The position numbers and the translations under genes are program-made. Below are positions 36,881-38,323 of a stretch of DNA of 64,000 nucleotides, piece after piece (the first letter of the stretch is position 1; each line of letters opens with the position of its first letter). Source of the stretch: a virus (taxonomy: Duplodnaviria; Heunggongvirae; Uroviricota; Caudoviricetes); IMG/VR virus record IMGVR_UViG_3300023371_000071. The stretch is one strand, 5' to 3'. A model generated the notes under the pieces. The model was not told the origin of the DNA, did no database searches, and saw only the letters and a program-made list of their open reading frames with translations.

Positions 36881-38323
36881 ATGGCTTATGTTGCATATGT
36901 TACTGCGTTGAAGAATGTGCGCAAGCACCCCAACGCTGACCGACTTCAGCTGGCTGATTGCTTTGGCAACACCGTTGTTGTAGGTCTGGACTATCAGGAG
37001 GGTCAGGTTGGTGTTTACTTCCCAGTAGATGGCCAGCTGTCTCCTGAGTTCTGCAAGGCTAATGACCTTGTGCGCCGCAAGGATGAAAATGGTAATGCTT
37101 GCGGTGGTTACCTTGATCCCGACAAGCGTAACATTAAGGCGATGCGTCTGCGTGGCGAGAAGTCCGATGGTCTTTTCTTGCCTCTGACTGCATTTGCCGA
37201 GTTTACCAAGATTTCTGATATGAAGGTGGGCGACACTATTGATGTTCTCAATGGTGTTGAAATCTGCCGCAAGTATATTCCTAAGACCAAGAATCGTACT
37301 GCTCGTGTTGGCGGTGGCAACAAGGTTGCTAAGGCAAACTTTGCTCCTACTTTCTATCAGCATGTTGATACTCAGCAGTTGGCTTACAACCTCAATGCCT
37401 TCAAGGCTGGCGATGTTGTGGAACTGACTTTGAAGATGCATGGTACTTCTGGTCGTACTGGTTATCTGCCTCTTGTTGCTCGTCATCAGACTCTTTGGGA
37501 TAAGATTTTCCATCGTCCTGGCCGCGAGGTTAAGGCATATGGTTATGTAACTGGCACCCGCCGTGTTATTCTGGATTCCAAGCATGATGGCGGTTTCTAT
37601 GATGACAATACTTTCCGTCTGGCTATGGCTCAGAAGTTTGAAGGTAAGCTCCGCAAGGGCGAAGTTGTATATTACGAGATCGTTGGTTTTGTAAATGCTT
37701 CTACTCCTATCATGGCTTCTGTTCCTAACTCCAAGATCTCCGATAAGGAGTTTACTAAGCAGTATGGCGAAACCACCGTGTTCTCCTACGGCTGTGACCC
37801 CGATGGTGATTTTGAGCGTCTGCCTGAGGTAATGGGTTGGTCTGAGATTGATGGTACTCCCATTCATTCTGACACCTCTTTCCTTGAGCCTCGTTGCGAT
37901 ATCTATGTCTATCGTATGACTCAGGTCAACGAAGATGGCGATGTTGTTGAAATGTCCCCTGAGCAGATGCGTCTGCGTTGCGAGCAGATGGGTATTAAGA
38001 CTGTGCCCGTATTCGAGACCTTTATGATTCCTGAGAATCCTGGCGAGGTCCTGACCGATAAGGCTGGCGAGACCGATTATGGTGTATGTTCTCCCGGTGA
38101 GTATGTACTCCGTAAGGTGGAGCAGTACTTTGATGGTCCTGACCCCATCGGTAAGACCCACGTCCGTGAGGGTGTTGTGGCTCGTATCGCAAACCGCCCC
38201 GAAATCGCTGTTTACAAGCATAAGAATTTCTCCTTCAAGGTACTTGAGGGTATTGCGAAGGATACCGCCGACGCACCGGATATGGAGGAAGCTCAGGATG
38301 AAGTGCCCACTGAAACCAATTAA
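36881..38323 (+). CDS. tRNA-binding (Trbp111/CsaA-like OB) domain fused to ATP-dependent RNA ligase (Rnl2-like)
   Basis: N-terminus VRKHPNADRLQLADCFGNTVVVGL is the MetRS-C/Trbp111 tRNA-binding signature; motif I LKMHGTSGR matches KxHGT of Rnl2-type ligases; AAAGGAGAA RBS. Confidence 0.6.
   Translation: MAYVAYVTALKNVRKHPNADRLQLADCFGNTVVVGLDYQEGQVGVYFPVDGQLSPEFCKANDLVRRKDENGNACGGYLDPDKRNIKAMRLRGEKSDGLFLPLTAFAEFTKISDMKVGDTIDVLNGVEICRKYIPKTKNRTARVGGGNKVAKANFAPTFYQHVDTQQLAYNLNAFKAGDVVELTLKMHGTSGRTGYLPLVARHQTLWDKIFHRPGREVKAYGYVTGTRRVILDSKHDGGFYDDNTFRLAMAQKFEGKLRKGEVVYYEIVGFVNASTPIMASVPNSKISDKEFTKQYGETTVFSYGCDPDGDFERLPEVMGWSEIDGTPIHSDTSFLEPRCDIYVYRMTQVNEDGDVVEMSPEQMRLRCEQMGIKTVPVFETFMIPENPGEVLTDKAGETDYGVCSPGEYVLRKVEQYFDGPDPIGKTHVREGVVARIANRPEIAVYKHKNFSFKVLEGIAKDTADAPDMEEAQDEVPTETN

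Follow-up and report, generated by a model that had tools for sequence, protein, structure and literature searches.

A phage gene joining an OB domain to an RNA ligase core probably encodes an Rnl5-type enzyme of RNA repair

Does a phage gene that joins a tRNA-binding type of OB domain to an RNA ligase encode a dedicated tRNA ligase? The question is raised by an open reading frame (ORF) at positions 36881-38323 (+) in a stretch of 64 000 nucleotides (nt), hereafter the window, from the IMG/VR virus record IMGVR_UViG_3300023371_000071 (Caudoviricetes). The window belongs to the large genome of an uncultivated phage, and relatives lie on contigs of 130-190 kb. In a preliminary description made from the letters of the sequence, the product was read as a Trbp111/CsaA-type tRNA-binding domain fused to a ligase of the Rnl2 family, an architecture taken to be that of a dedicated tRNA ligase. 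According to the present analysis, the product (the ligase in what follows) is very probably an ATP-dependent Rnl5 enzyme of a long phage subclade (PHROG 968, typically 420-480 amino acids, aa) acting at the sealing step of RNA repair. The OB-ligase fusion has been described before, as the signature of Rnl5; the phage family is very large, and the ligase is an ordinary member of it. The fold, the order of the domains, the catalytic motifs, the membership of the family and the conserved synteny are established here.

The ORF starts with ATG, with AGGAG located 9 nt 5' of it, and encodes 480 aa plus a stop codon. The strings on which the preliminary description relied were recovered at the expected places: K15-H-P-N-A-D-R-L22 (nt 36923-36946) and V32-V-V-G35 in the N-terminal domain, and the KxHGT string K185-M-H-G-T189 (nt 37433-37447).

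The family was assigned by profile searches. Two Pfam domains scored above their gathering scores, PF21189 'PHA02142 OB-fold domain' over aa 7-102 (E 2.5e-6) and PF09414 RNA_ligase over aa 180-454 (E 2.5e-7). PHROG 968 'RNA ligase' matched end to end (E 1.5e-71). With these scores, the reading as two domains goes far beyond chance, and the part that follows the N-terminal domain is confirmed as the core of an ATP-dependent RNA ligase, its motif I being of the KxHG form. NCBIfam TIGR02306 (RNA_lig_DRB0094, built on DraRnl, the Deinococcus radiodurans ligase DR_B0094) gave a partial match over aa 11-196 (E 3e-17). The OB domain stands at the N-terminus, the nucleotidyltransferase domain comes after it and no C-terminal accessory domain is present, which is the Rnl5 order. 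Rnl5 enzymes are defined by an N-terminal OB module and a C-terminal nucleotidyltransferase domain with no C-terminal appendage, and are found in bacteria, bacteriophages, archaea and unicellular eukaryotes (PMC7261155, PMC4408790, PMC5397189). Phage members have previously been noted (PMC1807946, PMC7261155).

The family alignment was built from 41 diverse homologues with 35-67% identity to the ligase. A narrow set of 37 close homologues (at least 71% identical) was set aside: the AlphaFold model made with it had a predicted local distance difference test score (pLDDT) of 55.9, and a PDB sequence search with its profile returned no significant match. The switch to the 41 diverse representatives gave a confident model (pLDDT 88.7, predicted template modelling score 0.86) and a significant PDB match. 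This match, the Naegleria gruberi RNA ligase NgrRnl (PDB 5cot), was the sole significant solved sequence relative. In the AlphaFold model the ligase fold is complete and the OB domain docks on the ligase core as in NgrRnl. The ligase was classed as Rnl5-type because of its Pfam and PHROG domains, its relationship to NgrRnl and this model. Its parts are as follows.

36881-37279, + strand: N-terminal OB domain (Rnl5 signature module), aa 1-133, a remote homologue of the tRNA_bind/PheRS-B2 fold
37280-37387, + strand: linker, aa 134-169, with a basic Gly-rich part of low confidence, ending in F158-x-x-H161-x-D-T164
37427-37444, + strand: motif I, T183-L-K185-M-H187-G188, K185 being the predicted AMP-accepting lysine
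37661-37690, + strand: motif III strand EVVYYEIVGF, aa 261-270, a beta strand in the model, E266 and G269 invariant
37805-37891, + strand: insertion specific to the close clade, aa 309-337, lacking in most of the family and of low confidence in the model
38168-38185, + strand: motif IV, E430-G-V-V-A-R435, E430, G431 and R435 invariant, paired with NgrRnl REGLVF (Glu312 region)
38216-38224, + strand: motif V, K446-H-K448, K446 and K448 invariant
38228-38320, + strand: C-terminal helix and acidic tail, aa 450-480, not a separate domain

The catalytic motifs were then examined for conservation. Residues invariant across the 41 homologues include K185, G188, S190, R192, G225, E266, G269, Y303, Y344, E430, G431, R435, K446 and K448; H187 of motif I is kept in at least 90%. 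Motif I of DraRnl (163-TEKLHG-168) has the same pattern as the TLKMHG of the ligase, and its motif IV reads EGVVV (PMC1807946). Motif III was placed by analogy to VQIFGEVV of DraRnl (PMC1807946) and is to be taken as a likely assignment. K446 and K448 lie 16-18 residues past the motif IV glutamate, as in Rnl5, the reference for this spacing being Glu312 and Lys326 of NgrRnl (PMC7261155). By position and conservation, motif Ia is probably T226-R227, and motif IIIa may be Y344 or Y303. Motifs III, IV and V are thus present in addition to motif I.

The ligase resembles NgrRnl and DraRnl in having an OB domain and then a nucleotidyltransferase domain, a TxKxHG motif I as in DraRnl, motifs III, IV and V, and, by alignment, putative equivalents of NgrRnl Asp53 and Lys121. 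It differs from NgrRnl in being about 140 residues longer (the crystallized NgrRnl chain has 340 residues) and only 21% identical. Additions relative to NgrRnl that are shared across the family comprise the long hairpin following motif I (aa 189-225) and the C-terminal helix with its acidic tail. The C-terminal helices span aa 450-462 and 468-474; pLDDT goes down to 53 at the end and alignment occupancy drops past aa 472. The insertion at aa 309-337 is recognized by an alignment occupancy of 0.08-0.15 over aa 311-330 and by pLDDT block means of 62-73 over aa 311-340, and most family representatives align to the ligase in two stretches with a break near aa 306. A second close-clade addition covers aa 385-401. 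In the linker, the means of ten-residue blocks are 74, 56 and 89 (pLDDT, aa 131-160), with aa 140-143 below 50; H161 and T164 are invariant in the 41 homologues.

To place the N-terminal domain, a profile was built from 34 family members and searched against the PDB sequences. The top match was NgrRnl (E 1.4e-5). The next matches were almost all tRNA_bind proteins, with PheRS-beta at E 0.002-0.004 and the MetRS C-terminal domain at E 0.028; the tRNA-binding protein 3bu2, the MetRS-C 1mkh and YgjH were weaker (E about 0.3). The same profile was aligned by hhalign to the B2 domain of Escherichia coli PheRS-beta with 95.9% probability, HPNAD(R/K)L and (I/V)KAxKLRGExSxG being paired. The numbering of the E. 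coli sequence agrees with the 3pco_B match at residues 104-127. Pfam tRNA_bind (PF01588) remained below threshold for the ligase itself (12.4 vs 27 bits, E 0.18) and gave weak matches in 17 of the 34 family members (best E 5e-4). A likeness of the DraRnl OB domain to the PheRS B2 OB fold was already pointed out in the first DraRnl papers (PMC1807946). The elements kept in the OB domain of the ligase are H16-P-N-A-D20 (nt 36926-36940), D50, R91-G-x-x-S-x-G97 and K131; that R91 corresponds to Arg79 of DraRnl was considered and is not claimed. Judged by these profile comparisons, its relationship to the MetRS-C/Trbp111/CsaA/PheRS-B2 (tRNA_bind) group is real but remote, and on this point the preliminary description was right. 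Compared with the tRNA_bind domains (PheRS-beta B2, MetRS-C, Trbp111, CsaA, EMAPII/Arc1p), the OB domain of the ligase is fused to and docked on a ligase core, and carries an extra loop (aa 54-86) between conserved strands. The function shown for the OB domain in its own family is the positioning of ATP and not the binding of tRNA.

This role is known from NgrRnl. In its OB domain, Arg4 and Lys121 touch the ATP gamma-phosphate and Asp53 touches the associated metal, and by these contacts the pyrophosphate is so oriented that the lysine of motif I can attack in line (PMC7261155). Removal of the domain cripples adenylylation and spares the sealing of a pre-adenylylated nick (PMC7261155, PMC4408790). 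In hidden Markov model (HMM) alignments, D50 and K131 of the ligase pair with Asp53 and Lys121 of NgrRnl, and K131 is conserved in at least 90% of the 41 homologues. Because of this pairing and conservation, a three-step pathway is proposed in which K185 would be the nucleophile and the OB domain the module of step 1. K185 would attack the ATP alpha-phosphate to form ligase-AMP. The OB domain, packed on the nucleotidyltransferase domain, would hold the gamma-phosphate and metal through D50 and K131, so that pyrophosphate leaves in line. The AMP would then be moved to a 5'-PO4 RNA end, and attack by a 3'-OH RNA end would seal the break. Enzymatic activity, substrate and biological role are inferred, the mechanism from NgrRnl and DraRnl and the role from the gene context.

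The Rnl2 label of the preliminary description had to be replaced. The enzymes of that family (T4 Rnl2 and the kinetoplastid RNA-editing ligases) carry an alpha-helical domain at the C-terminus and none of the OB type at the N-terminus, whereas the ligase has an N-terminal OB accessory domain and lacks the C-terminal one; Rnl2 membership is ruled out by this absence. The label can be traced to motif I: KxHG is common to the ligase, the Rnl2 family (T4 Rnl2, REL1) and DraRnl (PMC1807946), and since DraRnl shares it, it does not discriminate Rnl2 from Rnl5.

The coding frame was checked by comparison with homologous genes in two metagenomic contigs, L002 and L005. In the + frame of the ligase, codon position 3 holds 64 of the 88 differences from the L002 gene and 205 of the 351 differences from the L005 gene. 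The concentration of differences at codon position 3 identifies the + frame as the coding one, and the substitutions point to purifying selection. An antisense ORF of 465 aa (36824-38221, -) was considered and rejected as a shadow, the substitutions obeying the + frame. TTA, CTA and TCA codons, which are stops if read on the opposite strand, have a frequency of about 17 per 1000 across the genes of the window overall and are absent from the ligase gene (0/481); the antisense ORF is explained by this absence. Long shadow ORFs on the - strand oppose most + strand genes between 28.6 and 38.3 kb. The GC content of the ligase gene is 48.7%, against 42.7% for the window.

The family comprises more than 8000 protein clusters at 90% identity and 2543 clusters at 50% identity (E up to 0.001). 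It matches 500 phage records, and among the records listed most are annotated 'RNA ligase'; metagenomic viral homologues are already labelled by similarity to 'Naegleria gruberi RNA ligase'. The PHROG 968/PHA02142 phage ligases (Omega gp162, MiniMac gp90, Thrax1, PBC2) are 29-46% identical to the ligase over more than 95% of the length. Like the ligase, those of the mycobacteriophage clusters E, J and L and of Bacillus phages are paired with polynucleotide kinase/phosphatase and tRNA genes. Every mycobacteriophage genome of clusters E, J and L carries the homologous ligase together with Pnkp and tRNA genes (PMC3706429). In Bacillus phage Thrax1, the 46%-identical homologue is followed directly by a polynucleotide kinase, and a nucleotidyltransferase lies closely upstream. 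The ligase differs from the other PHROG 968 ligases by its clade-specific insertion and by a larger neighbourhood, which includes RlaP, YqeY, DUF5662, MVP-like (for major vault protein) and SPFH genes.

Some homologues from other contigs (P0061, P0123, P0128) have about 800 aa. Pfam domains of the Hint/intein and LAGLIDADG types occur in P0061. P0123 and P0128 align with the ligase core again only past residue 540, the split being near motif I. These features suggest an intein inserted near motif I.

The biological role was approached through the genes around the ligase, which are listed below.

28687-30201, + strand: DUF2828/DUF7788 protein of 504 aa, PHROG 850 'RNA-binding protein'
30779-33250, + strand: 823-aa protein with major-vault-protein shoulder and vault repeat domains (PF11978, E 1.3e-21)
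33543-34388, + strand: nucleotidyltransferase of the RlaP family (RNA ligase-associated Pol-beta; PF10127, E 4e-5; PHROG 388)
34388-35197, + strand: metallophosphoesterase 1, candidate 3'-end-healing enzyme (PF00149, E 7e-14; PHROG 1649)
35582-36223, + strand: HNH endonuclease, 0.7 kb upstream of the ligase
36423-36878, + strand: YqeY-domain gene (PF09424, E 8e-9; PHROG 1460), its stop codon ending 2 nt before the ligase ATG
38488-39003, + strand: DUF5662 gene directly downstream of the ligase (PF18907, E 3e-35), at the same position in L002 and L005
40099-40944, + strand: metallophosphoesterase 2, lambda/NinI-like (PF00149, E 5e-10; PHROG 246, E 2e-29)
41463-42047, + strand: polynucleotide 5'-kinase-like P-loop protein with GIPGAGKST (AAA_33, E 5e-17)
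42239-42844, + strand: metallophosphoesterase 3, directly after the kinase (PF00149, PF12850)
42968-44425, + strand: SPFH/flotillin protein, an auxiliary gene unusual for a phage

A relative with 96% identity shows the same gene order, and one with 74% identity shows most of it. The YqeY-domain gene adjoins the ligase in contigs L002-L004 and lies about 3 kb upstream in L005 (the 74%-identical relative), and the kinase-phosphoesterase pair is kept in L002 and L005. The best PDB relatives of the kinase are the kinase domain of Clostridium thermocellum Pnkp (E 6e-11), T4 Pnk (E 1e-4) and Pnkp1 (E 3e-4); its true start is probably an internal ATG. PDB sequence searches with two of the metallophosphoesterases gave nothing useful. 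Upstream, 33 tRNA genes were found at 9603-26497, all on the + strand, interspersed with small ORFs and covering most amino acids. A megablast search of 20 kb around the ligase against the phage collection found no near DNA relative.

From this context, a role in RNA repair is the best-supported one. The ligase would be the sealing step of a phage heal-and-seal pathway. Broken ends would be healed by the Pnk-like 5'-kinase and by the metallophosphoesterases, acting on 2',3'-cyclic or 3'-phosphate ends, and lost nucleotides would be restored by RlaP. Such a pathway would reverse damage done by host ribonucleases to tRNA or other translation RNAs, alongside the 33 tRNA genes of the phage. RlaP extends RNA 3' ends by one or two nucleotides, and the restoration of nucleotides removed by 'smart' ribotoxins has been proposed as its function (PMC12776372). 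The same logic of kinase, phosphoesterase, nucleotidyltransferase and ligase, supplemented by phage tRNAs, was described in a survey of jumbo phages (PMC7824862). As with T4 Pnkp plus Rnl1 and with bacterial Pnkp/Hen1, a 5'-kinase, a 3'-phosphoesterase and an ATP-dependent ligase are encoded in one genome. Unlike in these systems, the ligase is of the Rnl5 type, not Rnl1 or Rnl4, and the healing activities are on separate proteins; a Hen1 methyltransferase was not seen among the window genes examined.

Several observations weigh against this assignment. The equivalog cut-off of TIGR02306 for DraRnl was missed (62.4 vs 151.15 bits), only the N-terminal half being matched. The nucleotidyltransferase domain is therefore divergent, with extra elements at aa 189-225, 309-337 and 385-401, and the ligase has the Rnl5 architecture but belongs to a divergent phage subclade and is not a DraRnl equivalog. 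No counterpart of NgrRnl Arg4 was seen in the ligase, and Arg149 of NgrRnl, which contacts the gamma-phosphate, pairs with Q166 in the HMM alignment; mechanistic details may for this reason differ from NgrRnl. The nicks sealed by characterized Rnl5 enzymes lie in duplexes in which RNA forms the 3'-OH strand (PMC5397189), and a broken anticodon loop does not obviously have this geometry. DraRnl shows a DNA-repair phenotype (PMC5397189); no assayed member of the phage subclade of the ligase was found in the literature. The kinase and phosphoesterase genes are 2-5 kb from the ligase, neither fused nor adjacent to it. Finally, the operon structure comes from consensus matches only: a site resembling a promoter (35341-35369) and a strong hairpin resembling a terminator (39744-39776) may bound a transcription unit containing the ligase.

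Three other readings were weighed against an Rnl5 enzyme of RNA repair. In the first, that of the preliminary description, the OB domain would bind tRNA in the manner of Trbp111, CsaA or MetRS-C and recruit the ligase to broken tRNAs. In function, such an enzyme would be analogous to T4 Rnl1, which owes its tRNA specificity to its C-terminal domain. The phage clade keeps HPNAD and RGxxSxG, whereas NgrRnl has lost HPNAD (IAGAEAI in the alignment), and the gene adjoins a YqeY-domain gene in a region that holds 33 tRNA genes. The mycobacteriophage homologue, with Pnkp, was proposed to repair RNA damaged by host defences and has been implicated in tRNA repair (PMC3706429, PMC5511906). A tRNA connection is plausible because of these homologues and of the RNA-repair neighbourhood; it is not new, and it does not follow from the architecture. 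In the characterized Rnl5 enzymes, step 1 adenylylation depends on the OB domain, which contacts ATP, and the papers on this dependence mention no binding of tRNA by the domain (PMC7261155, PMC4408790). Characterized Rnl5 enzymes act on nicked duplexes. The predicted ATP-contacting residues D50 and K131 are conserved in the ligase, and the model docks its OB domain on the core as in NgrRnl. By sequence, its nearest tRNA_bind relative is PheRS B2, not Trbp111 or CsaA, and the Pfam tRNA_bind score is below threshold. Trbp111 and CsaA bind tRNA as dimers, and nothing here indicates a comparable dimer. A ligase recruited to tRNA by its OB domain is therefore rather unlikely.

A combined role of the OB domain was also considered, in which it would, in this phage subclade, both position ATP, as in NgrRnl, and recognize tRNA. 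The idea comes from the retention of HPNAD and RGxxSxG, signatures of true tRNA-binding OB domains, in a clade that occurs together with tRNA arrays, end-healing enzymes, RlaP and a protein with a YqeY domain. It is regarded as speculative and unlikely.

In the second reading, the ligase would act on the DNA side and seal phage DNA nicks with ribonucleotide 3'-OH ends (RNA-patch gap filling, primer processing), as proposed for DraRnl. DraRnl and NgrRnl require RNA in the 3'-OH strand alone and tolerate DNA in the rest of the substrate (PMC4408790, PMC5397189), and deletion of DraRnl delays genome reassembly after irradiation in Deinococcus (PMC5397189). In the window, the HNH endonuclease gene is 0.7 kb upstream of the ligase and GyrB is about 9 kb downstream. 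Against this, the conserved neighbours act on RNA (Pnk-like kinase, metallophosphoesterases, RlaP, YqeY, PHROG 850 'RNA-binding protein'), the tRNA array lies upstream, and in other phages the ligase travels with Pnkp and tRNA genes. A DNA-side function is thus quite improbable. The third reading, a catalytically dead or repurposed homologue (a scaffold or an adenylyltransferase alone), could be drawn from the insertions and from the divergent nucleotidyltransferase domain with its TIGR02306 score below cut-off, but it is hardly credible, all checkable catalytic motif residues being invariant down to 35% identity, the substitutions bearing the mark of purifying selection and the modelled fold being complete.

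Other features of the window were recorded. The YqeY domain of the gene adjoining the ligase also occurs at the GatB C-terminus. The DUF5662 protein carries a HHYANSRHHPEH motif, and no PDB sequence relative of it was found. A small Cys-rich ORF (about 38300-38498) overlaps the 3' end of the ligase and is called as a gene of 58-61 aa in L002 and L005. The pair formed by the MVP-like and DUF2828 genes is kept in L002; the stretch taken from L005 held only the end of the DUF2828 gene, and the MVP-like gene was not seen in it. This pair may be a vault- or Ro-like ribonucleoprotein scaffold for RNA repair. An S-adenosylmethionine synthetase, a formate-tetrahydrofolate ligase (E 1.6e-238) and a GyrB-like topoisomerase subunit are encoded among 26379-27611, 45773-47434 and 47548-49452; together with the SPFH gene, they are auxiliary genes unusual for a phage. 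A tRNA of 91 nt, long for a tRNA, lies at 19471-19561; its anticodon is CTA, which reads TAG, and its ARAGORN label is Pyl. The stop codons of 40 called genes of the window are TAA in 27 and TGA in 13, with no TAG. TAG may be suppressed or reassigned in part of the phage genome.

The main value of the Rnl5 assignment is the correct annotation of the ligase, whose fusion is the hallmark of a family defined between 2004 and 2015 and common in phages. Since this very abundant phage subclade is found in conserved RNA-repair neighbourhoods by large tRNA arrays, it would be a good system for the question of whether tRNA damaged by host defence nucleases is repaired by Rnl5 enzymes. If the OB domain did both position ATP and recognize tRNA, these enzymes would form a second class of repair ligases specific for tRNA, one that evolved independently and is functionally analogous to T4 Rnl1; tRNA would also be the first physiological substrate to be defined for Rnl5 enzymes.

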